Positions 8,801 to 46,858 of a stretch of DNA of 64,000 nucleotides are shown here, in pieces; the stretch's first letter is position 1; each line of letters begins with the position of its first letter. The notes under the pieces are model-generated. The model did no database searches, was not told where the DNA came from, and saw only the letters and a program-made list of their open reading frames with translations. The position numbers and the translations under genes are program-made. Origin of the DNA: a bacterium (GTDB lineage Bacteria > Krumholzibacteriota > Krumholzibacteriia > JACNKJ01); assembly GCA_024231955.1 (NCBI GenBank), contig JAAEPZ010000591.1, positions 98,453 through 162,452 of the forward strand, written 5' to 3'.

Positions 8801-8897
8801 GCCTCTCAAGATTGATGATCTACTCGCCGCGATCGAGAGAAACGGGCTGATCGACACCCCTGTACGGGAAAAACTACGGGATGGCGCAAGTGCTTAG
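5838..8897 (+). CDS. Hybrid sensor histidine kinase (TM, PAS, HisKA, HATPase_c, receiver)
   Basis: 1019 aa, GTG start. H-box [18 protein letters not shown]. HATPase [43 protein letters not shown]...[15 protein letters not shown]. Confidence 0.85.
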
Positions 8898-11987: not shown

Positions 11988-14900
11988 AGGGATCTTGGTC
12001 ATCGGGGCCGGAATCACGGGAATACAGACCTCTCTTGATCTCGCGCACGCCGGGTTCCGGGTTCACCTGCTCGAACGTTCGCCCTCTATCGGCGGTCGGA
12101 TGAGTCAGTTGGACAAGGTATTCCCGACGGTCGACTGCTCTATATGAATCCTGGGTCCCTTGATGATGGATGCCGGTCGGCATCCCGGGATCGAATTGCA
12201 TACTCTCTCCGAGCTCACGGGGCTGCGCGGACGTGCCGGTGCCTTCAGAGCCACCGTCCGTAAGCATCCGCGTTATGTGGACCCGGAGCTGTGCGTTGCC
12301 TGCGGTCGTTGCACCGACGTGTGTCCGCAGGTGCGTCCGAATCCGTATGATATCGGACTGAAATCCGCGAAGGCCATCGACCGTCTGTTTCCTCAGGCCG
12401 TGCCCGCCGCCTATCACATCGATAAGGATGTCTGCCTCAACGACAACATTATGTACTGCGAGCGCTGTATCCGCGCCTGCGAGCCCGACGCGATCGATTT
12501 CGATCAACGCGAGGAGACGTTGGAGCTGGAGATCGGGTCGGTGATCGTGGCCACCGGTTTCGATGAACTCGATCCGCGCGAACTGCTCCCTTTTGGTTAC
12601 GGAAGTTCGCGCAATGTGCTGACCGGCCTGGAGTTCGAACGGCTGCTGTGCGCAACCGGACCGACCGGCGGGCACGTCGTGCGTCCCACCGATCTCAAGG
12701 TGCCGGAGCGTATCCTCTTCGTGCAGTGTGTGGGCTCTCGTGGTGAGGGGGGACGTTCCTACTGCTCCCGCTACTGTTGCATGAACTCCGTGAAGTCCGC
12801 GATGCTTGCCCACGAGCATGAACCGACTCTGAAGGGGAGCACGCTGCTCTTCACCGATATGCGCGCCGATGGGCGCGGCTACGATGCTTTCGTCGAGCGC
12901 TGCCTGGAGAGGGATCAGATCAGCACCATGCGGGGACGTCCGGCGAAGATCGAGGAGAACCCCGAGACGGGCGATCTGAGCGTCTGGGTCGAAGATTTCG
13001 AAGCCGGCAGGCCAACCCGCATCGAGGCGGGTATGGTCGTGCTCTCCTCTGCTGCCCTGCCCGCCGGTGGGACGCCCGAGCTGGGACGTATTCTGAGGAT
13101 CGAATTGGATGAAAGCGGTTTCGTCAAACGGAAGTGTCCGGACGAATCGCCGACCAAAACGACACGTCCCGGCATCTATGTGGCCGGCAGTGCCGGTTCA
13201 CCCGCAATAATCCCCGAGTGCGTGGCGCAGGGTGCCGCCGCCGCATCCGCCGCGAGTACACACGTCCTTGCCGAGCGCAACACGAAGGAGCAGGGTGAGC
13301 ATGTCGCTCCCATCGATTCCTCCGGTCCGCCGCGCATCGGCGTCTTTGTCTGCCACTGTGGAGCCAACATCGCAGGGGTGGTCAACGTTCAGGAGCTGCG
13401 CGAGGAGGCGGCGAAGCTGCCCGGCGTGGTCTATGCCGGGGATGAACATTTCGCCTGCGCCGAGATCTCCCAGAAGGTCATCGAAGAGGTGATCACCGAG
13501 CACAAGCTCAACCGTATCGTTGTCGCCGCCTGCACGCCGCGCACTCACGAACCGGTGTTCCGCGATGTCCTCAGTCGACGCGGTCTCAATCCCTTCCTGT
13601 TCGAGATGGTCAACATTCGCGATCAGTGCACCTGGGTGCATTCGGATGTGCCCGATGAGGCGCAGGCGCGCGCGCGTGATCAGATCCGTATGAGCGTGGC
13701 GCGCGCCGCGCGACTGGAGCCGCTGACTCCGATTCGGGTGGACGTCAATCGACGCGTCGTCGTGATTGGCGGCGGCATCTCCGGAATCCGCGTGGCGCTT
13801 GATCTGGCTGCGCAGGAGTTCGAGGTGACGCTGGTTGAGGTTGACGAGCAGATGGGGGGCGTGACGGCGAAGCTGGGTACGGCTGTCGGCGAACCCGGTC
13901 AAGCGCTGACCACGCTGAAGAGGCAACTGAAGCGCTCACCGGTCAGAGTGTTGCGGCAAACGGATATTGCCCGCGTTGATGGTTACGTCGGCAACTTCAT
14001 CCTAACACTCCACCCGGGCGAAGAGGAGTTGACCGCCGGTGCGATCGTGCTGGCGATCGGCGCCAAGCCGTACGATCCCACGGGACGGTTCGGTTTCGGA
14101 ACGAAGAGCAATGTCATTACTAATCTGGATCTCGAACGCCGCCTCAGGGATGAGAGTGATGTCCTCGGCGGAGGTGAGGGGGGTGTCCCGGCTACCGCGG
14201 TGATTATCCAGTGTGTCGGTTCCCGCTGCCGGGAGGAGGGGTGCAACCAGGGGTGCTCCCGCTACTGCTGCCCGTCGACGGTCAAACAGGCGCTCAAGCT
14301 GGCGGCGCTGGGTACGCGCGTTACGGTGCTCTATCGCGACATGCGCATGGTGGGGCCGGGTATGGAGGCCCTGTATCGCGAAGCCCGCGGAGCGGGTGTT
14401 CTGTTCGTGCGTGTTCCGGACGGTGGGCAAATGACGGTTGTCGGCGATACTCTGGCCGAGGCTGTCGTCGCCGATGACATGCTGCCCGACCGCGAGATTG
14501 AAGCGCCCGCCGAATTGGTGATCCTGGCCGTCGGGCTGGTTCCCGACAATGAGTTGATTTTGCGTATCAAGGAGCTCCTGAAGACTCCGGTTGGTCCCGA
14601 TGGCTTCCTGATGGAGCGTCATCCCGAACTGGGGCCGGTCGAAACTGTCGTGGACGGAGTATTCGTCTGCGGTACGGTCACCGGAGCCAAGTCGATTGCC
14701 GACTCCCTGGCCGAAGCCGGAGCTGCCGCGGGCAAGGTCAGCCGCCTGCTGTCGCGACAGGCGCTGACGCTGGAGCCGACCGTGGCCGAGGTTGATCGTC
14801 TGCTCTGCCGCGCGTGCGGCAAGTGTGTCGAGATCTGCGAGTATCAGGCCCCCTCCCTGGCTGATGACATGTTCGGTTTGCAGGCGGCGTCGATCAACAA

Positions 14901-15027
14901 GGCCTCCTGCAAGGGCTGCGGCACCTGCGTCTCCTGGTGTCCGACGGGAGCGATCAAGGCCTGCCACTTCACCGATGGTCAGATCGAGGCGATGATGGAA
15001 ACGATGCTGCAGTGGGAGAAGATGTGA
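11968..15027 (+). CDS. hdrA: Large HdrA-like flavoprotein (HdrL-type, two tandem HdrA-like halves) containing an in-frame UGA (selenocysteine) at 12145-12147
   Basis: ATG at 11968 in frame with track ORF 12160-15027. Translation [20 protein letters not shown]...[23 protein letters not shown]. The TGA sits where the second Cys of the conserved HdrA DCSxC motif belongs. Second half has the HdrA N-domain ([15 protein letters not shown]...CTPRTHEP) plus an FAD site ([10 protein letters not shown]) but no CxxU/CxxC motif. Ferredoxin CxxCxxCxxxCP motifs present. Confidence 0.8.
12168..12185 (+). promoter_or_regulatory. Putative bacterial SECIS hairpin 20 nt downstream of the UGA in hdrL
   Basis: GGAUGCC-GGUC-GGCAUCC: perfect 7-bp stem with a GGUC apical loop (G and U in the loop as in characterised bacterial SECIS). 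Identical element at the same spacing in the second hdrA. Confidence 0.5.
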
Positions 15028-15494
15028 ATAACAGCGATTTCGAACCGCGGATAGTGGTGTTTGCCTGCAACTGGTGTTCGTACGCCGGAGCCGATACGGC
15101 TGGCGTCAGCAGGTTGCAGCACTCGCCCAAATTCCGGGTCATCCGGACCATGTGTTCGGGGCGTGTCAATTCGGTGCATATCCTCAAGGCCTTCGAGATG
15201 GGGGCCGACGGAGTCCTGGTGTCCGGATGTCACATCGGCGATTGTCACTACATGTTCGGCAATCACTGGGCGATCAAGCAGTTCGATGTCACGCGCGATC
15301 TGCTCAACATGCTTGGCCTGGAGGAGGCGCGCACGCGGCTGGAATGGGTGTCTGCGGCGGAGGGTCCCAAGTGGGCCTCCCTGATCGATGAATTCGTGAC
15401 CACGATTCAGCAGCTCGGTCCCAGCCCGCTGCGGGGGGAATCCACCGAGGAGTCCTTCGGCGACCGTGAGATCGACATGGAGGTGAACGGGTAA
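15024..15494 (+). CDS. mvhD: MvhD/FlpD-family [2Fe-2S] protein (methyl-viologen-reducing hydrogenase delta-subunit-like)
   Basis: [19 protein letters not shown]...IRTMCSGRV...GADGVLVSGCHIGDCHY...LEWVSAAEG is the MvhD signature. Start is probably the GTG overlapping the hdrL stop (GTGA). The longer ATG 14937 start in the track would overlap hdrL by 90 nt. Confidence 0.7.
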   Translation: MNNSDFEPRIVVFACNWCSYAGADTAGVSRLQHSPKFRVIRTMCSGRVNSVHILKAFEMGADGVLVSGCHIGDCHYMFGNHWAIKQFDVTRDLLNMLGLEEARTRLEWVSAAEGPKWASLIDEFVTTIQQLGPSPLRGESTEESFGDREIDMEVNG

Positions 15495-16603
15495 TGGCGA
15501 ATACCGAATTGAAAGGGGCCATGCGCTGTCTGGACTGCGGTAAATGCACATCCGCCTGTCCCGTGGCGCGCTTCAATCTTGTCCTCTCTCCCCGGAGATT
15601 GATCCGGCAGCTCGGTTGCGGAGTGGATGCGGGTTGCGGCGACGCGCTCTGGTCCTGTCTGACCTGCGGCCGCTGTGATGCGGTTTGTCCGCAAGAGGTG
15701 CCGATCACCGCCGCCATGCCGCTGCTGCGCGCCGATGTGCGTGCGGAGGGGGGCAAGCCGCCCTTCACACGCTGCGGAGCGATGGAGAGCGTGGCGACGA
15801 TTCAGTCGCAGGGGCCCGTTCCCCAGAACCGGCTGGAGTGGCTCACCGACGACCTGCGCACCGACCCGGAGAGCAAAACGCTGCTCTTCATAGGCTGCAC
15901 CCCCTACTTCGACAAGTTCTTCGTCGAGCACGATGTCGATACCCTGGCGGCGGTGAAGGGGGCGATCCGGATTCTCAATGCAATGGGCATAGAGCCCGCC
16001 GTGCTGGCCGATGAGCGCTGTTGCGGACACGATGCACTCTGGTCCGGGGACGAAAAGACCTTCAGCGATCTGGCTCATCTGAATCTGGAGATGTTCGCCA
16101 AGGCCGCACCCGATCTGATCGTGACGGTCTGCCCGGAATGCTCACTGACCCTCGGGCGCACCTACCCGGAACGTTTTGAAGCGCCCGGCTGTCCGGTCAA
16201 ACACATCACCGAGGTGGTCTCGGAGCATTACGAGGAGCTGGAGTTCACCGCACGCGAGCTGACGGTGACTTTCCAGGATCCATGTCGATTGGGGCGTCAT
16301 CAGGATCTGTATGTCGAGCCGCGCGAGGGGCTCGAGATGATTCCCGACCTCGAACTGAGAGAGATGCCGCGGAATAGGGCGGCAGCCGTTTGTTGCGCGG
16401 GCTCATGGCTCACCTGTAATCAGGCGAGCAAGAAGATTCAATCCGATCGCCTCGCGGAGGCAGAGGCGACCGGGGCGGAACTGATGGTGACGGCCTGTCC
16501 CAAGTGCCTGATCCATTTCCGCTGCTCTCAATCCGGCGTCGGGGAGGAGCCCGGGATCGAGATCCGGGACTTCGCAGACCTGCTCGCCGAGTCACTGCAA
16601 TAG
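15494..16603 (+). CDS. HdrD-like Fe-S oxidoreductase (HdrC-type 2x[4Fe-4S] domain fused to HdrB-type CCG domains)
   Basis: 369 aa. N-terminal [12 protein letters not shown] and [12 protein letters not shown] motifs. C-terminal CCG motifs (ERCCGHD, CCAGSW). 1-nt TAATG overlap with mvhD. Confidence 0.7.
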
Positions 16604-16625
16604 AGGAGGAAAGGAGGTGAACCGT

Positions 16626-19055
16626 ATGCCGAAAGCTCTACCCCGTATAGGAGTCTTCGTTTGCGATTGCGGCTCGAACATAGCCGGAACCGTGGACACC
16701 CAGGCGGTAACCGATTACGCCACCACTCTGCCCGGAGTCGTCGCGGTAGTGAGGAACAAGTACACGTGCGCCGAACCTGGACAGCAGGAGATCAAGAAGG
16801 CGATCGTGGAGGAGAAGCTGGAGCGTGTCGTCGTGGCGTCCTGTACGCCGCGGATGCATGAGCCGACTTTCCGTGGATGTGTCTGGGATGTCGGTTTGAA
16901 CCCCTATCTCATGGAGATGGCGAATCTTCGTGAACACTGTTCCTGGGTGCATGGAGACGACAAGGAGGGCGCCACCGCCAAGGCCAAGGATCTGGTTGCC
17001 AGCGCAGTCGCGCGTGCAGCCAAACTCGAGGCTCAGGAGGAGGCTGTCTTCCCGGTCACCAAAGCGGCGCTGGTGATCGGTGGAGGCATTACCGGGATTC
17101 AGGCCGCCATGGATCTGGCGGACGCCGGTCATCAGGTCTATCTGGTCGAGAAGGAGGCGAGTATTGGCGGGATCATGGCCCAGCTTGACAAGACCTATCC
17201 CACCATGGACTGCTCGATATGAATTCTCGGACCAAAGATGATGGATGCCGGTCGGCATCCCCTGATCAAATTGATGAGTTACAGCGAGATTGAGGACGTC
17301 AATGGTTACGTCGGCAATTTCAAGGTTACGGTTCGCAAGAAGGCGCGCTACGTGGACGAAACCGTCTGCAACAGTTGCGGTGAGTGCGAGAAGGTGTGTC
17401 CCGCAATCCATCCGGACGAGTTCCAGATGGGGTTGGCGACACGGAAGGCTGTGCACCTGCCCTTCCCGCAGGCCGTGCCGTCGGCCTACCTGATCAACAT
17501 GGAGAATTGCCTGGGCACGAATCCCATCGCCTGCGGCAAGTGCGCCGAGGTCTGCGAGAAGAATGCCATCAACTATGATATGCAGGATGAGATCGTCGTC
17601 CTGGATATAGGTGCGATCGTGGTGGCGACGGGGATCGATGTCTACGATCCCACGCAGCAGGATGAATACGGCTATACGCGATTCCAGAACGTGATTACGA
17701 GTATGGAGTTCGAGCGGCTTATCTGTGCTGGAGGGCCGACGGTCGGCCATCTGGTGCGGCCGGGTGATCACACCACGCCGCTGCGGATCGGTTTCATCCA
17801 GTGTGTCGGTTCCCGTTCGCTGCGCGATGGGGCGGGTTTCTGCAGCAACATCTGCTGCATGAACACGGTCAAGGATACGCTGCTGATTCGCGATCATTAT
17901 CCCGACGCCGAGTGCTCGGTCTTCTATATCGACATCCGCGCGTTCGGTAAGGGATTCGAGGATCTTTACGACAAGAGTCGCGAGGCCGGCGTCAAGTACA
18001 TCCGCGGTATTCCGGGTGAGATTACGGAGGACCCCGCCACCGGCAATCTGCGCATGGTGGTGGAGAACACGACTACGCGGTCGATCGAGGAGCACGAGTT
18101 CGACATGATTGTGCTGTCGGTCGGTGTGCGGCCCCGAGCGGACGGCGGCGATATCCGTCGACATTTGACGCTGTCGCAAACCTCCGATGGTTTTCTGATG
18201 GAGGCCCATCCCAAGCTCAAGCCGGTGGACGCGCCGACGCGCGGCGTGTATATCGCGGGTTGCGCCGAAGCACCGAAGGACGTCAAGGAGAGCGTGACCC
18301 AGGCCAGCGCCGCTGCGGCGAGGGCGGGCGTATTGCTCAATGCGGGGAAGGTGACCGTGGAGGCGATCACCTGTACCATCGACAATGATCTCTGTCACGG
18401 TTGCGGAGCCTGCGAAAAGGTCTGCCCCTATGGAGCGATCACCGTGGATAAGGGGGCAAAAACGGCAGCGGTGGTTGAAGCCGCCTGTGCCGGATGCGGC
18501 ACCTGTGGTTCCGCTTGCCGATTCGATGCGATCACGATGCGGCATTTTACGGATGCGCAGATCGTGGCCCAGGTCGACGCCCTGCTGGCGGAGCGGCAGA
18601 GCGGGAAGGTTATCGTCTTCGCCTGCAACTGGTGCTCCTATGCAGGGGGCGATACCGCAGGCACGAGCCGCATGCTTTATCCCGCGAGTAATCGTTTGAT
18701 CCGTACGATGTGCAGCGGGCGAATCTCCGAGGAGTTCGTGCTGCGCGCGTTCCGCAAAGGGGCGCCGATAGTGCTGGTTTCCGGTTGCCACTTCGCGGAT
18801 TGCCACTACATCGACGCAAACCGTCAAACAGTCAAACGTGTTTATCGCTTGTGGAAGCAGTTGGAGAAGCTGGGGATTCGCACCGAACGGCTGCAGTTGG
18901 AATGGATCAGCGCGGCCGAGGGTCCCAAATTCCAGAAGACGATGCGCGAGATGGAGGAGTTGCGTGCCCAGGTGACCCAGGAGGAGATCGATCACACCGT
19001 GAAGGTGTTGACCGAGCAATTCGAGAAGCGTCGCCTGAAAAAAGTGAGGAGCTGA
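16626..19055 (+). CDS. hdrA: HdrA flavoprotein with C-terminal fused MvhD domain, containing in-frame UGA (selenocysteine) at 17220-17222
   Basis: Track ORFs 16617-17222 and 17238-19055 share a frame and are separated only by TGA. Translation ...[30 protein letters not shown]. Canonical HdrA N-domain ([22 protein letters not shown]), FAD site ([17 protein letters not shown]), ferredoxin motifs. C-terminal MvhD block ([18 protein letters not shown]...[11 protein letters not shown]). AAGGAGG RBS 8 nt before ATG 16626; GTG 16617 also possible. Confidence 0.8.
17243..17260 (+). promoter_or_regulatory. Putative bacterial SECIS hairpin 20 nt downstream of the UGA in hdrA-mvhD
   Basis: Same GGAUGCC-GGUC-GGCAUCC hairpin as at 12168-12185, at the same 20-nt distance from the UGA. 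Confidence 0.5.
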
Positions 19056-19059
19056 CGGC

Positions 19060-19224
19060 ATGGAAAAGATGTGGGTGTTCAAGTGTCAGCGCTGCGGTTG
19101 TGATTATCAGGAGGTCTACGACCCCAAGGCGGCGCTGCGGGAGAGATCCTGCCCGCAGTGTCGCTCCAACAGCGTGCGCCCGTTGCACGATGTCGATTCG
19201 ACGAAAAGACAGGCGAAGGGATAA
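19060..19224 (+). CDS. Small zinc-ribbon protein (54 aa, two CxxC pairs) between hdrA and hdrC; absent from the ORF track (<60 aa)
   Basis: ATG 5 nt after the hdrA stop. Translation MEKMWVFKCQRCGCDYQEVYDPKAALRERSCPQCRSNSVRPLHDVDSTKRQAKG. Stop TAA at 19222-19224, 6 nt before hdrC. Confidence 0.45.
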   Translation: MEKMWVFKCQRCGCDYQEVYDPKAALRERSCPQCRSNSVRPLHDVDSTKRQAKG

Positions 19225-19230
19225 GCGACG

Positions 19231-19731
19231 ATGAAGGAGAAAAAACGGGTGCGGATCAGTCATGATTTCCGAGAGCAGTTGGGGCTTGTGCTCGAGGGGG
19301 ATGGCGTCAATTACTGTTACCAGTGCGGTGCCTGCGTGGGGGACTGCCCCACCGCCCGCTTCAGTGAGGATTTCAACCCGCGGACCATCATGCAGTCCGT
19401 TCTCTATGGCCTGAAAGAGGAGATCGCCTCGGATACGCTGCCTGTCTGGATGTGCTCCAATTGCTTCACCTGTTTTGACCGCTGCCCGCAAGAGGTCAAG
19501 CCGATTGAGGTGATCATCGCCCTCAAGAATCTGATGGCGAGTGAGGGGATCGTTCCGAAAGGTGTGGAGGCGGCTGCTGCAGGTATCCTGAAAACGGGGC
19601 GCAGCGCGATAGTGTCCAATACCACCGTACGTCGTCGTGAGGAGTTGGGACTGCCGCCCCTGGAGGAGCTGGATGCCGGGGAATTACGTACCCTTCTGGA
19701 TGCGGACGCAAATGGGGAGGGGGAAAAATGA
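19231..19731 (+). CDS. hdrC: Heterodisulfide reductase subunit C (2x[4Fe-4S])
   Basis: 166 aa. CYQCGACVGDCP and CSNCFTCFDRCP motifs with the HdrC-type helical C-terminal part. Confidence 0.85.
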   Translation: MKEKKRVRISHDFREQLGLVLEGDGVNYCYQCGACVGDCPTARFSEDFNPRTIMQSVLYGLKEEIASDTLPVWMCSNCFTCFDRCPQEVKPIEVIIALKNLMASEGIVPKGVEAAAAGILKTGRSAIVSNTTVRRREELGLPPLEELDAGELRTLLDADANGEGEK

Positions 19732-20591
19732 AGCTGGCCTTCTTTCCCGGATGCATGATTCAGGTGAGATTCCCGCAGATGGAGGCGGCGGTGCGGAAAA
19801 CCGCGCCGGCGCTCGATGTCGAGTTGATAGACCTGCCTGGACTTGGCTGTTGTCCTGACCCCGTCTTCTTTAAATCGCTGCACAAACTTGATTGGTTGAC
19901 CCTTGCCGCCCGCAACCTGGCGATCGCCGAGCAGGCGGGACTCGATTTCGTCACGATCTGCAGCGGATGCACCGAGACGCTGGCGGAGGCCTCCCATCTG
20001 CTCAATGATGATGCTGATCTGCGCGGACAGGTAAACGAACGTCTGCACAAAATCGGCATGGAGTACAACGGTGGAGTGGCGACGCGTCATCTGATCACCG
20101 TGTTGCGGGACAATCTGGGGTTCGAACGGCTGACTGCTTCGGTGACTCGTCCTCTGACCGGTTTGCGTGTTGGAGTGCACTACGGTTGTCATCTACTAAA
20201 GCCGCGTAAGATCATGCAAGTCGATGATCCGGATCACCCCACGGTGTTCGAGGATATGCTGCGGGCCATCGGCGCCGAGCCTGTCGATCATGTGGAGCGG
20301 GTGATCTGCTGCGGCAAATCGTGCCGCGATTGCAACTTGCCTGAGGAGATGACATTGACGGTATTGAGATCGCTCAAGACGGCAGAGGTCGACATGATGG
20401 GGGTGATTTGCCCATCGTGTTTCGATTCCTTCGATATCGGGCAGATCAAGATCTCCCGCAAACACAAGCTGGGCTACACAATCCCGCCCGTCTACTACTT
20501 CCAGTTGCTTGCGTTGGCTCAAGGGCTGACGCCGGCAGAGGTCGGATTGGACAAGCATAAGATCAAGTCGGAGAGACTGCTGACTTTGTAG
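19728..20591 (+). CDS. hdrB: Heterodisulfide reductase subunit B (two CCG domains)
   Basis: 287 aa. N-terminus MKLAFFPGCMI...GLGCCPDP and CCGKSCRDCN are CCG-domain signatures. ATGA overlap with hdrC. Confidence 0.85.
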   Translation: MKLAFFPGCMIQVRFPQMEAAVRKTAPALDVELIDLPGLGCCPDPVFFKSLHKLDWLTLAARNLAIAEQAGLDFVTICSGCTETLAEASHLLNDDADLRGQVNERLHKIGMEYNGGVATRHLITVLRDNLGFERLTASVTRPLTGLRVGVHYGCHLLKPRKIMQVDDPDHPTVFEDMLRAIGAEPVDHVERVICCGKSCRDCNLPEEMTLTVLRSLKTAEVDMMGVICPSCFDSFDIGQIKISRKHKLGYTIPPVYYFQLLALAQGLTPAEVGLDKHKIKSERLLTL

Positions 20592-21522: not shown

Positions 21523-24018
21523 TCAGTGGGCAGTTGCTTCAAATGCCTTGAATTCGATACTGTTTTCGGTCAACATCATGTTTGCAGGCCTGAATTTCAG
21601 AAGGAAGCCCGCCCCTTTATATAGGGTGTTGTGTGGCATGGAGTTGATGGAGCCATCGAAGCGATTAATCAAATAGTGGCAACGAGGTAGGCCGAAACCT
21701 CGAGAATTATCGCTGCTTGAACCCTCTACGAACAGATTGGGAATCTGAGCAGGGTCAAGACCGGGGCCATTGTCCGTAATCTCCAGATGAATCCATTCAT
21801 GCCTGGCCTTCAGGTGAAAGTGGATTTCGGGGTTGGCAATGTCCTTGAGCGCATCCTTGGCATTGCCCAGTATATTTTCAAGAACGATGAACAGGCATTT
21901 CCTGTCAAAAAAGATCGGCAGTGCGGGGACCGGCTCCAGATGATACACGGTTTGGATCGGATGAGCTTTGTCCGCAAGGCAGGCACGAACCGTCTGCATC
22001 AGTCCGACTCCCAGATCGGTTGTGAAATGTATCCGAGTCTCGGTGACTATCTTCTTGATACACTCAGAAACATGAACTGCTTGTCGCTGAATACCCTTCA
22101 GAAGAAGCGAGTGTAATGGACCGCCTGATTCATAGCGCCGGATGAAGAATCTGAAGAGCCATAGGTGCCAGCCAAGTGGATTTGAGGTTCGCTGAGACCG
22201 GCTCAGAGACCTGTACAGGTTGTTGATGGTCCTGATCATGTTCAGGGAGTCCTGGGTATGCAGGATATGGAGCAGGTGGTCCATATCCTGTGAGGTCGTG
22301 TTTTCAGGCGACCGAAGTCCAATTTTACATAACCTGTCGAAGAGACTCTTCCCGCCGGGGGAGCTGATGGAGCGTTCAAGGAGGCGATAGAGCAGATACC
22401 AGATCTCCCAATTGACCGGGGAGGTTGCCGGGGGAGCAACCGGTTTCTTGTTGATTCGGATGAATGCAACCAGCAGTCCGCCAGTGAGGAGACCCGTCAG
22501 GAACAGTAACAGTCCGGCGGGCAAAGTACGCTTGCTCGGAGCCAGTTGGGCAAGGGTCAACCGGTTCCCGTTTAGATAGGCGGGCTGAATCTTCCCCCCT
22601 TCCCATTGCCAGAAACAGGTGGGCAGGAAACAGGGGGTGGTGCCCTGAGCCGGATCCGGTTTCAGAATGGCCAGAGTATTCAGGTCGTTATCCAGAATCA
22701 GACCGCCTGAATCGGCAACCGTGACGACGATCTCCAGGTTGCCGTCACCCACTAGATCGCACAGGGTCTGGATGCTTACGCTTTTATCGAACTCCCTCTC
22801 GGCAATAGTCTCCAGATCCAGATTGAGGTGGGCGATCCTGCCGTTCTGTAGGGCCAGCAGGATGTCATCGCAGCCATCCTGGTCCAAGTCGGCGACAATG
22901 ACGCTGTAGGTGTTGGCCTGAAGCGTGCGATACTTCAGGATCTCACCGCTCAGGCTTTTCAGCTCAAGTCTGCTGGGTTTATCATCCTTCACTCCGCTGG
23001 ATATGTTCACCAGCCGGGCAATGGGGTGGCCATCGTGTCTCACCAGGCGCTGCTTGACATGTGAGTGGATCGATCCCCGAGCATTGCATTCGACCAGTTC
23101 CCCTGTCTCGCTGATCACCAGTTCGTAACTGTGATCATCTCCGCCTATATCCTGCACGAACGTTCCGTTGCCCGGTGAGGATGTACCGAACAGCATCTCG
23201 AGATGACCATCGCCGTCAAGATCGGTCACGCCGCCGCAGGTCGGGGGGCTGGGGACGTTGCGTTGCCATTTGATCCCCACATCCGGCTTATAGAGAAGTA
23301 CCGAACGCTGAGTACCGCCAAAGGCGGTGCCGATCTGGATGACGACACCCCGCCTGTCAGGCAACACGATTACGGGCAGCAGGCTGGCGGTGTTCATGGG
23401 CTTCGTCAGCAGCCCGGGGATCGCCACTTTGAATAGGCATTGTGCCTTGTGGCTGTAATCGGGAACCTGACTCCAGAATTCCAGCGTGTCGGGCTTGAGC
23501 GAATAGAAGAGCAGCTCCAGGACCCCGTCATCGTTCAGGTCATCAGGCGGCAGGCAACGATAGTGACCCTGGAGATTGAATTGGAGGTGGTCGGAGAAGG
23601 TGGTGGCATGGCGCGAGCTATGGATGAGCAGGATCGTGCAATCATTCAACTTGTCGTACTGGCTGAACAGGATGTCGGCGCATTGATCGTGATTGAGGTC
23701 CTTGCACGAGATGAATTCGAACTCATCCCTGATACAGTGGGCCTGGTAGACATCCTCGACTGTCCACGGAATGAAATCCGCTCCGCAGTCGGGCGCCAGT
23801 ACCATGAGCGCCAGCAACATTGTGCTACCCGCGTGGTGACTGCGCGCCTTTCCGGTATTGCTCTCGACAACGGCTCCCTTGCTCCTTTTACGCGTACGAC
23901 GGACACAGCGCAATGCCTGTGCGATCAACAGCAGGATGAGCACCGCCAGACAGATTATGAAGATGCCTAAATGTCCCTCACCCGATCTCAGTCCGAATGC
24001 GTCAAACAGTGCCGTCAT
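21523..24018 (-). CDS. Membrane sensor histidine kinase with extracytoplasmic FG-GAP/beta-propeller-type repeat domain
   Basis: 831 aa. N-terminal TM, then repeated DLDGDGHLEM / DLDQDGCDDILL / DLVGDGNLEIVV Ca-binding-like FG-GAP/VCBS repeats. Second TM (LLLFLTGLLTGGLLVAFI). C-terminal HATPase_c (LEITDNGPGLDP...GFGLPRCHYLINRFDGSI). H-box not canonical. Confidence 0.7.
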   Translation of the reverse strand: MTALFDAFGLRSGEGHLGIFIICLAVLILLLIAQALRCVRRTRKRSKGAVVESNTGKARSHHAGSTMLLALMVLAPDCGADFIPWTVEDVYQAHCIRDEFEFISCKDLNHDQCADILFSQYDKLNDCTILLIHSSRHATTFSDHLQFNLQGHYRCLPPDDLNDDGVLELLFYSLKPDTLEFWSQVPDYSHKAQCLFKVAIPGLLTKPMNTASLLPVIVLPDRRGVVIQIGTAFGGTQRSVLLYKPDVGIKWQRNVPSPPTCGGVTDLDGDGHLEMLFGTSSPGNGTFVQDIGGDDHSYELVISETGELVECNARGSIHSHVKQRLVRHDGHPIARLVNISSGVKDDKPSRLELKSLSGEILKYRTLQANTYSVIVADLDQDGCDDILLALQNGRIAHLNLDLETIAEREFDKSVSIQTLCDLVGDGNLEIVVTVADSGGLILDNDLNTLAILKPDPAQGTTPCFLPTCFWQWEGGKIQPAYLNGNRLTLAQLAPSKRTLPAGLLLFLTGLLTGGLLVAFIRINKKPVAPPATSPVNWEIWYLLYRLLERSISSPGGKSLFDRLCKIGLRSPENTTSQDMDHLLHILHTQDSLNMIRTINNLYRSLSRSQRTSNPLGWHLWLFRFFIRRYESGGPLHSLLLKGIQRQAVHVSECIKKIVTETRIHFTTDLGVGLMQTVRACLADKAHPIQTVYHLEPVPALPIFFDRKCLFIVLENILGNAKDALKDIANPEIHFHLKARHEWIHLEITDNGPGLDPAQIPNLFVEGSSSDNSRGFGLPRCHYLINRFDGSINSMPHNTLYKGAGFLLKFRPANMMLTENSIEFKAFEATAH

Positions 24019-26438
24019 GATGCGACCTGCTTGGCCTGCGATACGGTCGTGGAGTCATTGAGGTCCAGCACCACCAACAGCCCGCTATCAGTCACTTCGA
24101 TGTCCGCCAGACTGTATTTCTTGAGGATAGGCGAGGTGACGGAGTGGATATTCCGGAAGGGCATGCCCTGCCCGGCAGAGTCCGAGGTGCTCAGGTGGAG
24201 ATCATGACCCTGTTTGACGAAACTGAATGCGATCTCCGCTTGCCTGGCATCCGTGAAACGGTGCATATGAATTTCGACCAAGGCGTTGACGATCGTGAAG
24301 AAATCCGTGTCGAGCATCACCATGTGGTCGTTCATGTTGATGTTCGTGAAAGAGATACTGAGATTCTGGAGGCGGAATCCCGCAACCTTCCACTTCTGGA
24401 GCCAGATGATCAACAAGTCGCCCAGAGTCCTGGAAAGTTTCTCCTGCACCTGATCCTTGAAAACCCTAACCGTCTCAATGCAAACCTTCAGGGATTGCTT
24501 GAATTCCTGCAGGGCGTTGTCGGACAGAAGCCCGCTCTCAAACACCTCATTTGCATGCTTTTCGCAAATCTCGCATGCCTGACTGAACTCGCCGCAAGGG
24601 GAGTTCCGACGATTCGTGTCATCAAGGATGGTGATCAGATCTTTGAGTGCCGGCAACGGATACCTGATGAAGAAGGCCGTGGTGGTCCGAAACCGTTCAA
24701 ACAGGCGGGAGTGTTCAAGTTCATCATAATTGTTGAGATGGAAGAGCATCCGTTCCAGGTTCTTGCGATAGGCGCGGGAGTGACGGAATTCGCGGATTGA
24801 GGGATAGAGTTCCTGCCAGTAAACGGGGGTGTTATCGATGTCGAGCAGGTTGACCCCATCGACAAGAGCCAGTTGCGGTCGCGCAGCCCTCCCCCGCTTG
24901 GTCTGCACAATGAGCAGAATGATCAACGGGACCGGCAGAAGCCAGGGGAACCAGACGGGTAGCGGGCCGGCGACAATACCGGGGTTCCTGTCCAGACAGA
25001 AAACGCTGGCCTGATGTGAACTGACGGGTATGATCATCCGGCCTTGGCTTCCCGATTGCAACCAGTATTGCGGATTGCTGCTGTTGAGTTCGGAGTTCAA
25101 GGTGATGGGGGACTGGAGCGCTGCCAGAGGCTGCATCCGAGAATCCAGGACGGCAATCCGACCGCCTATATTGACCAGGATCTCCTGCTGGCCGTCACCA
25201 AACAGATCGAAACTGTACATCGGAGTGACGCGTGCCTCGCACCACCATCGCCCTATCTCCGCAAGATCGCCATTGTACAGCACCAGACTGCCGTCATGAA
25301 AACCGGCGAGGATCTGCTCGTTGCCATTTCTGTCGAGATCGATGGTGATGAGACGGGTGAGAGATGCATGGCATTGGAGAACTTTCTCCAACTGCCCCTC
25401 GTGATCGAATATGCGCAGTTGGTCGCGACGTCCGGAGTCGTTGCGCAGCATGGCACCGATCAGGTAGCCCGGGGCGGCGCTAGTGCGCAACGGGAAGGTG
25501 GTTGCCTGCGAGTAGGCACCTCCGGCAGCCCGATGCATGACCATCGAGCCGTCCAGGCGGCGTACGACCCAGTAGCTGCGGCTGTCGTCTTCACCGGGTA
25601 TCCGATTGCCCTGCATGTCGGCAAAGCTGGTTTGAAAGAGTAGATGATCCTGAAGCGCGGACGCCCCATCGTCGGGGAGATTGCTCATCCTGGGTATTGC
25701 GAAATGCTGCGGATATCTCAGACGTCCGGCAGAGGGGAAGTAGTTCCGGAATCCATTCCGATCGATAAGCAGCAGGCCGGAGGGTCCATCGATCCTGCTT
25801 GGTTGAAAATTGATGAGGGCCATGCCCAGATCGGGCAGAGCCAATCCGTCCGAACGACATTCCAAAGTGGGATTGGAGAAGAGAGCGGGCAGCTCCGCAG
25901 GGGAGAGCTCGAGCAGGGGCTCGCTCCGCACCTCCGAGGCCCAGTGGGTCAGTTCGATGATTTTGATATGTAAGCCATCCGAGCGATTTTCCCAGAAGAC
26001 AAGATCATCGCGAGCATCGGCATTGAGATCACCGAAGGCGGCAAGCCCACCCTGATGAGCCTTGAACGAGGTGCTCCAGCGAAGACCAAAATCGTATAAT
26101 TCGGAATCGTAGACCTGAGCCCGACCAAGGGCCGCCGGTCGCGACGCGTTACTGCTCGCAACGATCAACGTTTCATCGCTGCCCTTGGCGTCAATCAGGT
26201 GGAAACCCGTGCCGACCAGACTCTGGATTTCGGTGAAGCGATACTTGAAGTTCACGTCCGAGGACAGAATGATCCGTTCGCCCTGGCCCGCAGAGGCGAT
26301 CCGGGCCGGGAAGGATATCAGCAGGAGGCCAATAAACGCAGCAAGGTAGCGGTGAATAGCCATTATCCCATCAAGGGTTTGGGAAGAGCGACAGCAAGAA
26401 TTGTAGCAGAGTGGGTTGGTCGAAGATAGCGCATTCAA
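24015..26438 (-). CDS. Paralogous FG-GAP repeat membrane sensor with degenerate C-terminal kinase-like domain
   Basis: 807 aa. Same TM / FG-GAP ectodomain / TM layout (DLDRNGNEQIL, DLFGDGQQEILV). Cytoplasmic tail resembles HATPase but lacks the G2 box (SDSAGQGMP only). 4-nt overlap with the downstream paralog. Confidence 0.65.
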   Translation of the reverse strand: MNALSSTNPLCYNSCCRSSQTLDGIMAIHRYLAAFIGLLLISFPARIASAGQGERIILSSDVNFKYRFTEIQSLVGTGFHLIDAKGSDETLIVASSNASRPAALGRAQVYDSELYDFGLRWSTSFKAHQGGLAAFGDLNADARDDLVFWENRSDGLHIKIIELTHWASEVRSEPLLELSPAELPALFSNPTLECRSDGLALPDLGMALINFQPSRIDGPSGLLLIDRNGFRNYFPSAGRLRYPQHFAIPRMSNLPDDGASALQDHLLFQTSFADMQGNRIPGEDDSRSYWVVRRLDGSMVMHRAAGGAYSQATTFPLRTSAAPGYLIGAMLRNDSGRRDQLRIFDHEGQLEKVLQCHASLTRLITIDLDRNGNEQILAGFHDGSLVLYNGDLAEIGRWWCEARVTPMYSFDLFGDGQQEILVNIGGRIAVLDSRMQPLAALQSPITLNSELNSSNPQYWLQSGSQGRMIIPVSSHQASVFCLDRNPGIVAGPLPVWFPWLLPVPLIILLIVQTKRGRAARPQLALVDGVNLLDIDNTPVYWQELYPSIREFRHSRAYRKNLERMLFHLNNYDELEHSRLFERFRTTTAFFIRYPLPALKDLITILDDTNRRNSPCGEFSQACEICEKHANEVFESGLLSDNALQEFKQSLKVCIETVRVFKDQVQEKLSRTLGDLLIIWLQKWKVAGFRLQNLSISFTNINMNDHMVMLDTDFFTIVNALVEIHMHRFTDARQAEIAFSFVKQGHDLHLSTSDSAGQGMPFRNIHSVTSPILKKYSLADIEVTDSGLLVVLDLNDSTTVSQAKQVAS

Positions 26439-27484: not shown

Positions 27485-29038
27485 TCAGGATGTCTCGTAG
27501 ATGACGTCCAGGATCGTCCCGTCAACCCATTTCACAATACCCACGATCTTCTCGCCGACCCTGGGCTTTGCGGGGGGGCCTCCGACAATGCCCTCGATTT
27601 CCCGCTTCAGTTCGTCGATGGATCGCACCGGCAGACCCGCTGCAGTGGCGGACTCGATCAGATCCTGCCGCAGCGGATTGATGGCAATGCCCCGCTCGGT
27701 AACCACCACATCGATCAATTCGCCGGGGCCGCAGAGTGTGGTGACCTCATCGACGATCACCGGAATCCGGTTGCGGAACGCCGGGATCGGCAGAATCGTC
27801 ACGTTGGCGAATAGACAATTCTGCCAACCGCCGATGCCGTGCAGCATCTTGCCGTCACTGTGGGTGACCACGTTGGCGTTGAAATCGACATCGACCTCGG
27901 TGGCGCCGAGCACGACGAAATCCACCAGGGAGGCGAAGTTGCCCTTGCCGTGCCAGTTGTAGCTGGTGAAAGGGCTGGTGGCCAGATGGTTGGGGTTCTC
28001 CCGCATGGAGCGCACCCCCTCAAGGTCGAAGGTCTGACCGTCGAGGAGATAATCCATCATCCCCTCCTCGAGCATCTGGACCATGTACTTCGTCGAACCG
28101 CCCCGCATGAAGCGTGCGCGGATCTCAGCCTCCCGCATCATCTCCTTGAGGAAGATGGCCGTGGCCAGGGCGGTCCCGCCGGCGCCGGCCTGCAGCGAGA
28201 ACCCATCGCGGAAGTATGATGTCGACCGGATGAACTTCGCCGTCAGTTCGGCGATCAGCAGACGGTCGGGACTCTTGGTGATCCGCGTCGTGCCGCTGAC
28301 GATCTTGTCCGGGTCTCCGACCTGCTCCAGTTCGACGACGTAATCCACGTTGTTCCCCTGGATCTGCCAGGGGACGCAGGGGAAGGGCACGAGGTTGTCG
28401 GTAACCACAATCACCTTGTCCGCATAGAGCGAATCGACCAGGCCGAAATTGAGGCTGCCGCAGGCGCTGGGTCCGCGATCCCCCGTGGCGTTGCCGAAAG
28501 CGTCTGCGGTGGGGGCGGCCAGCACCGTGATGTCGATGTGCACCTCGCCGTCCTGCACGGCCTGCCAGCGACCGCCATGACTGCGCAGCACGGCCACGCC
28601 ATCCATGTCGCCGTGACTGGCGTATGCCCCGAGAGGACCGTTGAGGCTCCCCTCGATCCGTTTCAGGACGCCGTTGTCCATGTGTTCGATCATGGGCTTG
28701 TGACAGGGGAACGCGGCGCTGGGAAACCAGACCAGATCCTTCACCCCCAACTCGGCCGCGGCCTGGAAGACCGCATTCATCACCAGATCCCCGTTACGGA
28801 AGTGGTGATGATTGCTGATGGTCATGCCGCTCTTCAGACCGGCTTTGCGCAGCGCCTCCTTCAAAGTGGCGACCCGCTTGTCGCCGTCGGCCGGGAAGTC
28901 CCCGCACTGGGCGACAGAGGGCGCCGTCTTGCGCCCCTGCGGCTGGAACTGCCCGACACCCTTGTACGGTGTCTGGGGAACGGCATTGACCTCTGTGGGA
29001 ACCATCCGACCCGCGGCATTCTTCACCATCTTGCTCAT
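27485..29038 (-). CDS. citF: Citrate lyase alpha subunit (citrate CoA-transferase)
   Basis: 517 aa. Colinear with CitF family (GMTISNHHHFRNGDLVMN..., ...NPNHLATSPFTSYNWHGKG..., ...GIAINPLRQDL...). Confidence 0.85.
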   Translation of the reverse strand: MSKMVKNAAGRMVPTEVNAVPQTPYKGVGQFQPQGRKTAPSVAQCGDFPADGDKRVATLKEALRKAGLKSGMTISNHHHFRNGDLVMNAVFQAAAELGVKDLVWFPSAAFPCHKPMIEHMDNGVLKRIEGSLNGPLGAYASHGDMDGVAVLRSHGGRWQAVQDGEVHIDITVLAAPTADAFGNATGDRGPSACGSLNFGLVDSLYADKVIVVTDNLVPFPCVPWQIQGNNVDYVVELEQVGDPDKIVSGTTRITKSPDRLLIAELTAKFIRSTSYFRDGFSLQAGAGGTALATAIFLKEMMREAEIRARFMRGGSTKYMVQMLEEGMMDYLLDGQTFDLEGVRSMRENPNHLATSPFTSYNWHGKGNFASLVDFVVLGATEVDVDFNANVVTHSDGKMLHGIGGWQNCLFANVTILPIPAFRNRIPVIVDEVTTLCGPGELIDVVVTERGIAINPLRQDLIESATAAGLPVRSIDELKREIEGIVGGPPAKPRVGEKIVGIVKWVDGTILDVIYETS

Positions 29039-30324
29039 GAGGTCACCTCCTTGCCCTTACGCCAGGTTTCGTCAAGCAGTCCGGTGGCCAGAGCCAGCTT
29101 AACCGTGTGCTGTGCCCGTTTGACCACGGGTGCGTCGATCATCTTGCTCCCCAGGCTGACGACCCCCAGGCCGCGCGCCTCGGCATCCTCGAAGGCCTCC
29201 ACGATCCGGCAGGCCTTTTTGACCTCCGCCGTTTCGGGGGCGAAAGCCTGGTTGACCACCGCGATCTGACGGGGATGGATGCACCCCTTGCCGTCGAAGC
29301 CGAGTCTCTTGGCCTCAAGTACGCTTTGACGCAGCCCCTCCTGGTCGCCCACGTCGCTGAAAACGGTATCGATGGGCTGCAGCCTGGCGGCCCGGGCCGC
29401 ATTGATGCACTGTCCGCGCATCCAGCGGCTCTCCTCACCCTCAAGCGTCCGCTGCACGCCGATGTCGGCGGTATAGTCCTCCAGACCAATGGCCACGGCC
29501 ACGTTGTTCGCGGATGCGCGGCAGATATCCAGCGCCTGCAGTGCTCCCAGGGCGCTTTCGATGATCGGCATCAGCCACACCGGCTCGGTGCGTCCGCAGG
29601 CCGCGCTGACCTCGGCGATCTTGGCGTCGATCAGTTTCAACTCCTCGGGGGTTTCGATTTTGGGTGCCAGGACAAGTTGCACGCCGTGGGGGACGATCCA
29701 CTCGAGGTCATCGAGACCGCGTTGACCCTGATTGATCCTCACCATGAGTTCGGCCTTGCCGAAATCGATTGCACGGAGGGCGTTGCGCACCACGATCCGA
29801 GCCGAATCCTTCTGGGTGGCGGCCACGGCATCCTCCAGGTCGAGGATGACCGCATCGGGATTGTGCAGGCCCGCGTTGATGAAAAGTCGGGGGGTATTGC
29901 CGGGCAGGTACAGACGACTGCGCCGGAAGCGGTCCCGGGCCGATGGGGTGGGATTTGCCCGTTGCTCCGGCAGGATCTCGGCCCGCAACTCGCCCAGGGC
30001 GCGTCGCGCGGCGACCTCGAGCCGGGCATCGATGACGAACGGCAGGGCCCCCGTATCCTCCATCTCGACTCGCGCATGCTCGATGCCCAGAGTCGTCAGT
30101 CCCCTGAGCAGCTGTTCGCGGATGGAGTCACCGTACATGGACTCCACCTTCGAACTCACCTCCAGCTCAATGCCGCCACTATTTCTGATCTCTAGATCGA
30201 TCCAGCAGTCGGAGCGCACATTCTTGCCGCGCACACCGGCTTCGGCTCTGCCTGTACTCATGTAGGTTGTCTCCCGGCTAGGTGTTGATCGGATACCGTG
30301 AACCCATGATTTCACTATTACCAT
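29035..30324 (-). CDS. citE: Citrate lyase gamma (acyl-carrier, CitD) fused to beta (citryl-CoA lyase, CitE, HpcH/HpaI fold)
   Basis: N-terminal roughly 100 aa resemble CitD (AEAGVRGKNVRSD...EDTGALPFVIDARLEVAARRA). Remainder is CitE (YLPGNTPRLFINAG...ILDLEDAV...GLEDYTADIG...GFDGKGCIHPRQI). 4-nt overlap with citF. Start may be the internal ATG near 30261. Confidence 0.75.
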   Translation of the reverse strand: MVIVKSWVHGIRSTPSRETTYMSTGRAEAGVRGKNVRSDCWIDLEIRNSGGIELEVSSKVESMYGDSIREQLLRGLTTLGIEHARVEMEDTGALPFVIDARLEVAARRALGELRAEILPEQRANPTPSARDRFRRSRLYLPGNTPRLFINAGLHNPDAVILDLEDAVAATQKDSARIVVRNALRAIDFGKAELMVRINQGQRGLDDLEWIVPHGVQLVLAPKIETPEELKLIDAKIAEVSAACGRTEPVWLMPIIESALGALQALDICRASANNVAVAIGLEDYTADIGVQRTLEGEESRWMRGQCINAARAARLQPIDTVFSDVGDQEGLRQSVLEAKRLGFDGKGCIHPRQIAVVNQAFAPETAEVKKACRIVEAFEDAEARGLGVVSLGSKMIDAPVVKRAQHTVKLALATGLLDETWRKGKEVTS

Positions 30325-39587: not shown

Positions 39588-40748
39588 GTGAAACCGACAC
39601 AAACGCCAGCACAGCAGCCCACCGATGATCTTGTGGACCGGATACCGGCGGGGATATACCAGGCCGACGAGCAGGGCTTCGTTTCCTATTGCAATCCCCG
39701 AGCGGCCTTGATATTGGGCTACAATCACCCGCGTGAACTGATCGGAAAGAAACTCAAGAGCTTATATGTGGATCCCAGTGACCGTGACAAATTGCTCGGC
39801 ATCATGGAGGTCGCCAAAGAGAAGGGATCGGAGAATTTCCGCATCAGGATGAAGAAGCCGTCGGGCGATGTCGTCGTGATCAGCGTCAATTCTCAGTACA
39901 GAGACTCGGGTGGAGCGGTCGAGGGCACATTTACCGATGTCACTGAACTGGCCAATTATGAAAGTCTGTTCGAGGATCTGCCGGCCGGCGTCTACCAGCT
40001 TGATGATGAACTGAACATCATCAAGTGTAATCCCGGATTCGAAAAGGTGTTCGGATATGAACCGGGGACACTCACCGGAGAGCCCGCCTCCAAGCTCTAT
40101 CTGGATGTTAACGATATGTACAGATTGAACGATGAACTCAAGGGGCGACTGGGATCCGGGCAGCAGGAGATCAGATCCCGGGTGATCGAGATGAAAAAAG
40201 AGAATGGGGACAGTGTCTGGATCTCATTGACGACCCATCTCAGACTGGATGGTAACGGGCAGGTGGTCGGCAGAGAGGGGACAGTCATTGAGACCACGCT
40301 GGAGGAGGCCAAAAAGAGGAAACAGATCTGTGGACATTGCTACGTTGCCGTGCCGTATCGACAGGAATTTCATGCGATCCATGACAAGATACTCAAACCG
40401 CTGGCTGCACAACACAAGTATATGGCTCAGAAAGCCGATTCCAAGATGGTTTTCACGGAATCCATGCGGACTAAAATGTACGGCATGATCCGCAACGCCG
40501 ACTTTGTGATCGGGGATATGACCGGCGACAATCCCAATGTGATGTACGAACTGGGGCTGGCGCACGCATTCGGCAAACCGGTGATTATGATCTCTCAGGA
40601 TAATGAAATCCCGGTCAACGTCAGGGAATATGAATTCATACACTACCAGGATACTCTTGCTGGTCTGGACCTGTTCAAGAAGAACCTGTCCCGGGCTATA
40701 CTGCATGTACATGAAGAGTTGATGGCGCAGGAGGCGAAGCGGGAGTGA
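39588..40748 (+). CDS. Tandem-PAS protein fused to a nucleoside 2-deoxyribosyltransferase-like / TIR-like Rossmann domain
   Basis: 386 aa, GTG start with CAGGAG RBS. Two PAS blocks (IPAGIYQADEQGFVSYCNPRAALILGY..., LPAGVYQLDDELNIIKCNPGFEKVFGY...). C-terminal ADFVIGDMTGDNPNVMYELGLAHAFGKPVIMI matches the NDT-like DxxG...E.G.A.A.GKPV signature. Confidence 0.65.
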   Translation: MKPTQTPAQQPTDDLVDRIPAGIYQADEQGFVSYCNPRAALILGYNHPRELIGKKLKSLYVDPSDRDKLLGIMEVAKEKGSENFRIRMKKPSGDVVVISVNSQYRDSGGAVEGTFTDVTELANYESLFEDLPAGVYQLDDELNIIKCNPGFEKVFGYEPGTLTGEPASKLYLDVNDMYRLNDELKGRLGSGQQEIRSRVIEMKKENGDSVWISLTTHLRLDGNGQVVGREGTVIETTLEEAKKRKQICGHCYVAVPYRQEFHAIHDKILKPLAAQHKYMAQKADSKMVFTESMRTKMYGMIRNADFVIGDMTGDNPNVMYELGLAHAFGKPVIMISQDNEIPVNVREYEFIHYQDTLAGLDLFKKNLSRAILHVHEELMAQEAKRE

Positions 40749-46701: not shown

Positions 46702-46858
46702 CTCGACTTCCTCCCGGTGGGTGTATATCACAAATGTAGCATGTTTGGCTTGTGCAGGGGAAGGGGGGGAGTCTGTAACCACAGTTTATCTGGGATATCG
46801 ATAAAGAAAGAGAGGGTGTCCGAGCCCCCCTCTCTCAATGCGTGATATCGAATTCGGA

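Follow-up and report, generated by a model that had tools for sequence, protein, structure and literature searches.

How might a sensor histidine kinase be made from two proteins, neither of which carries all the parts of a kinase? The question is raised by two overlapping genes in the 64-kb window analysed here, that is, the whole stretch of 64,000 nucleotides from contig JAAEPZ010000591.1. The genes, B upstream and A downstream, encode paralogous membrane proteins. A preliminary description gave both the same layout, namely a transmembrane (TM) helix, FG-GAP-like Asp-rich repeats, a second TM helix and a HATPase-like domain, and hydropathy, repeats and propeller models agree with it. The cytoplasmic parts of the two proteins have undergone complementary losses: B retains a juxtamembrane His motif, and A retains an intact ATP-binding domain. 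We propose, giving it roughly even chances on computational evidence, that B and A would each supply one subunit of a single sensor histidine kinase that is an obligate heteromer.

The losses are apparent in a 288-position profile of the cytoplasmic part, built from the subgroup of related kinases that carry a juxtamembrane His. A matches profile positions 59-282 with 103 bits, i.e. all but the His motif, and B matches positions 3-231 with 31 bits (hmmsearch), from the His motif through the G1 box. At the His-motif position A reads LLYRLLERSISSPGGKSLFDRL; residues 523-580 contain no His, and the first His after the second TM helix (TM2) is residue 581. The motif of B is intact, EFRHSRAYRKNLER, with His at position 528. 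In the key columns, A has no His and intact N, G1 and G2 boxes, and B has kept the His and lost N, G1, F and G2. Six B-like cytoplasmic regions align with the complete kinases over 211 columns (hhalign, 98% probability, E 1.7e-13), and the B-like modules keep L519, R524, F526, H528 and L536 (B numbering) invariant. Neither A nor B alone has the full set of propeller, TM helix, LLxxLxxF-x-H motif, linker of about 170 amino acids and intact catalytic domain. The ATP-binding domain and the candidate acceptor His thus lie on separate adjacent products, as in a split kinase, here at the level of sequence motifs. Because the sole conserved His of its family is missing, A by itself appears to be without a recognisable phospho-acceptor. 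The preliminary description had taken one copy to be kinase-competent and the pair to be a kinase with a pseudokinase; instead, the two are reciprocally incomplete halves, one with the His and no ATPase, the other with the ATPase and no His.

The catalytic domain of A matches Pfam HATPase_c with an E-value of 1e-10 and possesses all four boxes, N (LENILGNAKD), G1 (DNGPGL), F (NLFVE) and G2 (SRGFGL). The downstream copy therefore keeps G1 and G2, as had been noted from the sequence, and has a kinase fold in its C-terminus; B gives no HATPase_c match in the Pfam scan. The loss of G2 from the upstream copy also stands, but it is only part of the damage. The N-box Asn is replaced by Ile (TIVNALVEIH), G1 is broken by a one-residue insertion (DSAGQGM), and the F box, G2 and the entire ATP lid are gone. 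In the AlphaFold model, the C-terminus of B follows the order of strands and helices of the A catalytic domain, with 7 residues replacing the 26-residue ATP lid of A. The 31-bit profile match, the 98% hhalign probability and the predicted order of secondary structure support the view that the C-terminus of B is a degenerate ATPase domain. The cytoplasmic model of A matches the whole dimerization and histidine-phosphotransfer (DHp) plus catalytic (CA) portions of ZraS, HK853, YF1 and DivL (Foldseek), the matching region being the C-terminal part of the linker and the catalytic domain; E-values against the solved kinase structures are about 1e-9 to 1e-10 over about 240 columns, and the DivL match is 4q20. 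With the cytoplasmic part of B, a search of PDB sequences gave no match at E≤10. Neither protein matches HisKA (PF00512), HisKA_2, HisKA_3 or HAMP in Pfam at E≤1, so the name that MCP4548185.1 (A) carries at NCBI, 'HAMP domain-containing histidine kinase', is without support from a HAMP match.

What the two proteins have lost can be judged from the family to which they belong. When A was used as the query of an exhaustive HMMER search, 1.84 billion cluster representatives yielded 1571 matches at E≤1e-3, 65 of them at E≤1e-10. HATPase_c was found in 44 and FG-GAP_3 in 41 of the top 45 matches. Most of the best 150 of the 1571 matches consist of an FG-GAP ectodomain, a TM helix and HATPase_c, and 122 of these 150 have intact N, G1 and G2 boxes, with sizes of 700-850 amino acids. 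Proteins that combine a propeller with a kinase are common in metagenomes (at least 120 clusters), and the earlier remark that an FG-GAP domain wired to a histidine kinase is rare has to be withdrawn. One subgroup of the family contains PAS domains together with a classical H-box (HE[IL]KNPL). In the other, the motif LLxxLxxF-x-H[GSE] comes right after TM2 and is followed by about 170 helical residues and the catalytic domain, with no modelled DHp.

The motif His is the sole conserved His of this second subgroup, being present in 97% of a 38-sequence alignment. Of the 62 complete members, a set chosen for the presence of this His, five contain no other His from TM2 to the N box. Complete kinases must have an acceptor His, since they are found directly upstream of response regulators. 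At locus L003, the gene that overlaps and follows the complete kinase P0012 encodes a full NtrC-type response regulator, and at locus L005 the gene after the complete kinase P0008 has weak receiver and AAA-lid matches. By elimination, the motif His is probably the phospho-acceptor. When a profile of the His-bearing linker was run against PDB sequences, its only matches were to coiled coils and designed helical bundles. The GHGKT within the His motif was also considered as a P-loop and rejected, because it does not have the spacing of one, no residue but the His is conserved and it lies in a helix-turn-helix context. These sequences define a sizeable uncharacterised family of propeller-ectodomain kinases whose acceptor His would lie in an unmodelled juxtamembrane motif, and the propeller kinases partner sigma54 activators where flanking genes were examined. 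As a separate observation, the catalytic domain of the 1062-residue protein P0092 is intact (621-796), and the His motif and linker occur a second time behind it (819-958, profile positions 4-142), another rearrangement of the same family parts.

The two best matches of A are themselves fusions, P0004 (1553 amino acids) and P0005 (1518 amino acids), in which a B-like and an A-like module form one chain. Scanning of genome and metagenome collections with the B-like alignment yielded two loci, L001, from the uncultured-bacterium metagenome-assembled genome (MAG) MFD09964.bin.1.74 (3.6-Mb contig), and L002 (Ga0299912_10001637); P0005 is carried by L004. The N-terminal half of the fusions is B-like, with propeller, TM helix, His motif and dead catalytic domain, and the C-terminal half, which follows one TM helix, is A-like, with propeller, TM helix, no His and intact boxes. 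At the motif position the A-like halves read FRCRERG, DCRRRER and LRCREGR, and that of L001 has not a single His in the 180 residues between the TM helix and the N box. The fusions share 42-61% identity with each other and 23-29% with the window proteins. The joining of B-like and A-like modules in one chain suggests that they act on each other.

The three loci also share the order of their genes, a glpX fructose bisphosphatase, a TPR protein and a secreted GH32/43-like protein preceding the fusion. An NtrC-type sigma54 regulator is encoded directly downstream of the fusion in L001 and L002, and after a small helix-turn-helix gene in L004. In L001 and L002, an extra B-like gene (B') lies between the GH32/43-like gene and the fusion. 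Just upstream of the fusion in L004 (6997-7920) is a 307-residue reading frame. Its homology is confined to the cytoplasmic half of B' (43-45% identity), it has neither ectodomain nor TM helix, and its His-motif position reads FRAGG, the His being lost. Since only this truncated, His-less remnant is present, B' is dispensable or decaying in the L004 lineage.

A tree of 26 modules, built by neighbour joining from 734 columns with 200 bootstraps, groups B with all B-like modules at 100% and A with the A-like halves at 71%. The A and B modules branch beside the sampled complete family members, of which they are derived, reciprocally incomplete relatives. In none of the 200 bootstraps are A and B sisters, and a recent tandem duplication is rejected on this ground. 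The grouping of B with B-like and of A with A-like modules implies that the modules were duplicated and divided their labour before these lineages separated; as judged from the sequences, the split between A and B is ancient.

The ectodomains of A and B are paralogous as well, with 26% identity over 345 amino acids (E 6e-11). Asp-rich repeats are found in A as DLNDDG (160), DLDGDG (266), DLDQDG (377) and DLVGDG (421), and in B as DLNADA, DLDRNG and DLFGDG. In the scan against Pfam FG-GAP_3, which bears on the repeats named in the preliminary description, A scores 36.3 bits, above the gathering score of 26.9, and B reaches only 18.5 bits, below it. AlphaFold models were built from alignments of 61-64 family members, with a mean predicted local distance difference test score of 80 for A and 78 for B. 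Both ectodomain models are all-beta propellers of 32 strands, and therefore would have 8 blades; the integrin alpha propeller has 7, versus the 8 suggested by the strand count in A and B. In structure comparison they match ITFG2 of the KICSTOR complex, BBS9, BamB and the designed 8-bladed Cake8. The models thus support the assignment of both ectodomains as FG-GAP-type propellers.

A 617-residue GH32/GH43-like protein with a C-terminal FlgD_ig domain is encoded directly upstream of the sensor genes in three of three relatives (L001 7703-9556, L002 2341-4194, L004 5026-6879), and not beside the window pair. Its presence in the relatives hints that the propellers may sense a glycan.

As to how the pair arose and may work, comparison shows that A and B come from a family of propeller-ectodomain kinases with a juxtamembrane His, the probable acceptor, and that an ancient duplication was followed by complementary losses. 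B has kept H528, with a catalytic domain that presumably no longer binds ATP, and A has kept the complete catalytic domain and lost the His. The transmitter modules of A and B would pair in the membrane, with the ATGA overlap of the genes favouring co-translation in roughly equal amounts, and the catalytic domain of A would phosphorylate H528 of B in trans. From H528 the phosphoryl group would pass to an NtrC-type (sigma54-dependent) response regulator, presumably encoded outside the window. Two different propellers would feed one phosphorylation site, making a hard-wired asymmetric receptor. That the sensor is heteromeric had been suggested before, and the reciprocal losses, their conservation and the B::A fusions are consistent with this idea. 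The fuller claim, a stable asymmetric kinase in which paralogous propeller receptors act as an obligate heteromer (a single-chain 'heterodimer' in the relatives), one binding ATP and the other being phosphorylated, we hold more tentatively, at a little under even chances. In the 64 kb, receiver domains occur only at 393-3086, 5838-8897 and 18-392, none of them within 12 kb of the pair, and there is no sigma54 activator, in keeping with the earlier observation that no cognate response regulator is adjacent.

Several points weigh against the heteromeric kinase. The motif His stands at the end of the first helix in the cytoplasm, some 175 residues ahead of the N box, which is not the canonical DHp position. 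The surrounding region is recognised by neither Pfam nor PDB sequences, so that the acceptor role of this His is read from conservation alone, and the contact of the A catalytic domain with H528 of B is putative. The 64-kb window holds no response regulator partner. The presence of B' in L001 and L002 and of its truncated remnant in L004 indicates that the stoichiometry is not simply 1:1 everywhere; the support for the A-like clade is moderate (71%), and the known loci number only four, each from an uncultured organism. In addition, the linker of A has nine other His residues (H581/584/587, H618 and others), which could include a private acceptor. If so, A would be an autonomous kinase using its own non-conserved His, e.g. 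H618 or H581/584/587, and B would be an allosteric pseudokinase co-receptor, as RetS is with GacS. The complete catalytic domain of A, placed after a DHp-like helical hairpin that matches the cytoplasmic domains of ZraS and HK853, would suit this arrangement, and heteromeric inhibition between kinases is documented for RetS-GacS (PMC12189002). However, no His of A is conserved among the A-like modules, the A-like half of L001 lacks any over 180 residues, and the B-like modules hold the family His and its flanks (L519, R524, F526, H528 and L536) invariant, which would be unnecessary for a purely allosteric partner. We therefore regard an autonomous A as unlikely.

A longer relay appears less probable still. 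There, B would be a phosphotransferase or scaffold similar to Spo0B or ChpT, fed by a receiver encoded elsewhere, and A would have another substrate or act as an ATPase only. The His-bearing helical region of B and its catalytic-like domain unable to bind ATP do correspond to the design of Spo0B and ChpT, and two hybrid kinases with receiver domains are encoded in the same window. These kinases, however, lie more than 12 kb away in unrelated operons; A, B and the fused relatives all lack a receiver domain, the NtrC-type regulator is the only signalling gene in the operons of the relatives, and the fusion of B-like with A-like modules argues for mutual action. It is very improbable that the pair is simply a decaying tandem duplicate without joint function, with one or both genes drifting towards pseudogenes. 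Both proteins are indeed singletons at 90% identity among 5.8 billion clusters, no response regulator is adjacent, and the GC content of the pair is slightly below that of the neighbouring metabolic genes; but each reading frame runs uninterrupted for about 800 codons, lineages with only 23-29% identity to the window proteins have retained the same reciprocal losses in reading frames of up to 1571 codons, the duplication is older than those lineages, and GC and GC3 (GC at third codon positions) equal those of the other signalling genes of the window. Taken together, the strictly conserved His motif of the B-like modules, the lack of a conserved His in A-like ones, the lack of receiver domains and the fusions weaken these alternatives.

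The features of the pair are listed in Table 1. The overlap of the two genes by ATGA, noted from the sequence at the outset, is real and suggests translational coupling of B and A. Of the sizes given before, 831 and 807 amino acids, the former holds for A. The reading frame of B is open to a TTG at 26438 (24015-26438, 807 amino acids from TTG), but the ATG at 26363 is more probably the start, giving 782 amino acids, because it yields a normal signal peptide, MAIHRYLAAFIGLLLISFPARIASA, and equals the deposited form MCP4548186.1. Hydropathy shows an N-terminal hydrophobic segment in both proteins and a second TM helix around residue 500 in A and 470 in B. The two N-terminal hydrophobic stretches of A flank a loop with eight positive charges (RCVRRTRKRSK…KAR), and the second aligns with the single TM helix that joins the halves of the fused relatives. 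The N-terminal topology of A is therefore uncertain: there may be three TM helices, which would place the N-terminus outside, or the annotated start may be incorrect. An internal start of A after the AAGGAG at codons 44-46 was rejected, there being no start codon at a suitable distance. In a scan for promoters and terminators, signals were at or below shuffle expectation, and the gap after A contains no terminator. A word-indexed protein search returned the window proteins alone, even when queried with the B-like alignment, and looking up the exact sequence of A among contigs gave no match.

Table 1. Positions of the A and B genes and their parts in the window, and of the fused genes at the loci of relatives
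Feature	Coordinates	Strand	Description
Gene A (downstream)	21523-24018	-	831 amino acids, ATG start; ATPase-only module; MCP4548185.1
Gene B (upstream)	24015-26363	-	782 amino acids from ATG; His-only module; MCP4548186.1
ATGA overlap	24015-24018	-	B stop codon and A start codon
B residues 1-26	26286-26363	-	signal peptide or membrane anchor (…FPARIASA/G)
B residues 41-459	24987-26243	-	predicted 8-bladed FG-GAP-type beta-propeller ectodomain
B residues 465-490	24894-24971	-	transmembrane helix
B residues 514-643	24435-24824	-	helical linker
B residues 517-540	24744-24815	-	juxtamembrane His motif QELYPSIREFRHSRAYRKNLERML; H528 at 24780-24782
B residues 644-767	24063-24434	-	pseudo-catalytic GHKL-fold domain; no F box, G2 or ATP lid
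A residues 17-78	23785-23970	-	hydrophobic stretches 17-38 and 62-78 around +8 charged loop
A residues 85-494	22537-23766	-	predicted 8-bladed FG-GAP-type beta-propeller ectodomain
A residues 501-522	22453-22518	-	transmembrane helix
A residues 535-568	22315-22416	-	His-motif remnant, no His: WYLLYRLLERSISSPGGKSLFDRL
A residues 535-663	22030-22416	-	helical linker
A residues 666-810	21589-22023	-	intact catalytic ATP-binding domain
A catalytic boxes	N 21853-21882, G1 21757-21774, F 21724-21738, G2 21688-21705	-	
B::A fusions	L001 12044-16759; L002 6669-11378 (= P0004); L004 (P0005)		single reading frames of 1518-1571 amino acids

Horizontal acquisition of the pair, considered because of its GC dip, was rejected on the agreement in GC and GC3 with the other signalling genes of the window given above. 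Elsewhere in the window, a 386-residue protein (39588-40748, + strand) has two or three PAS domains and a C-terminal domain resembling nucleoside 2-deoxyribosyltransferase, an unusual sensor-effector fusion. Two adjacent 563-residue genes with Chlamydia polymorphic-membrane-protein (Chlam_PMP) repeats (45091-46782 and 46859-48550, both - strand) are arranged in tandem and possibly paralogous. A heterodisulfide-reductase-like cluster (12160-20591, + strand) encodes a 955-residue flavin adenine dinucleotide/4Fe-4S protein, CCG-domain proteins and an iron-sulfur protein fused to MvhD/FlpD, and near it are genes for citrate lyase (27485-30324), aconitase, methylmalonyl-CoA mutase and fumarate reductase; together, these genes indicate an anaerobic metabolism. 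A 1090-residue subtilase (60705-63977, - strand) ends in FlgD_ig and Por_Secre_tail domains, the latter of type IX secretion. These domains and the FlgD_ig tails at the loci of the relatives suggest that the FCB group of phyla is where all of these MAGs should be placed.

By standard teaching, histidine kinases are homodimers, and duplicated paralogs usually evolve away from cross-pairing. If the heteromeric kinase proposed here is real, A and B would constitute a natural obligate heterodimer, and trans-phosphorylation would be something that evolution can fix. The pair would also be a clean model for the asymmetry of homodimeric kinases, having one active site and one acceptor that are defined by sequence. 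Two extracellular sensor domains would be combined into one output feeding a sigma54 activator, and the fused relatives would provide a ready single-chain version for biochemistry.

Among known systems, the Bacteroides hybrid two-component systems (e.g. BT4663) sense glycans through a periplasmic propeller, TM helix and histidine kinase. A and B resemble them in having a large propeller wired via a TM helix to a kinase; however, the propellers of the hybrids are composed of Reg_prop/Y_Y_Y rather than FG-GAP repeats, and the hybrids are homodimeric, contain their own receiver and AraC output, and are not known to show complementary degeneration. PMC3243724 discusses this class of system. Spo0B of Bacillus and ChpT of Caulobacter join a His-bearing helical bundle to a catalytic-like fold without ATP binding, and are soluble homodimers phosphorylated by a receiver Asp. 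B shares this design of His-bearing helices with a dead catalytic-like fold, but B is a receptor anchored in the membrane, its ectodomain is large, and its system lacks a receiver domain. HK1 (Rv0600c) and HK2 (Rv0601c) reportedly divide the ATP-binding function and the phosphorylatable His between two adjacent gene products feeding TcrA (work attributed to Shrivastava et al. 2007). A and B are likewise adjacent and divided. Each polypeptide of HK1/HK2 has only its own domain, however, whereas A and B are full-length receptors with propeller, TM helix and reciprocally degenerate transmitter, and the two systems have no known sequence relationship. HK1/HK2-TcrA is listed among the systems of Mycobacterium tuberculosis in PMC9321153.

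The closest experimental parallel is artificial. Subunits mutated in the His and in the ATP-binding site are the standard complementation test for trans-autophosphorylation, and heterodimers of EnvZ, NtrB, CheA and MtrB have been engineered, of which the mixed dimer is active only if phosphorylation occurs in trans (PMC5956149, citing Swanson et al. 1993). As would be the case for A and B, one subunit gives the His and the other the catalytic domain. The engineered heterodimers, however, are point mutants of one protein, whereas the defects of A and B are natural, ancient and located on paralogs of 26% identity with different ectodomains. Contacts between different sensor kinases are also known from RetS-GacS (PMC12189002), but RetS inhibits a GacS homodimer that is otherwise self-sufficient, and there is no reciprocal loss. 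DivL is a kinase-like protein used non-catalytically and is without the His only, whereas A and B are both incomplete.

In the literature searched, there was neither a characterised FG-GAP sensor kinase nor a natural kinase pair with complementary defects, and none of the systems compared here unites all four features of the pair: paralogous receptors of full length, core functions lost reciprocally, conservation over long distances and fusion that recurs. The nearest likeness may come from outside the bacteria. ErbB2/ErbB3 (HER2/HER3) is an obligate heteromer of paralogous receptors, one of which is catalytically inactive, each being incomplete alone. Its protein-kinase fold is unrelated and it phosphorylates Tyr, so that the likeness is one of analogy only. 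If our proposal is true, A and B would be a bacterial counterpart of ErbB2/ErbB3.

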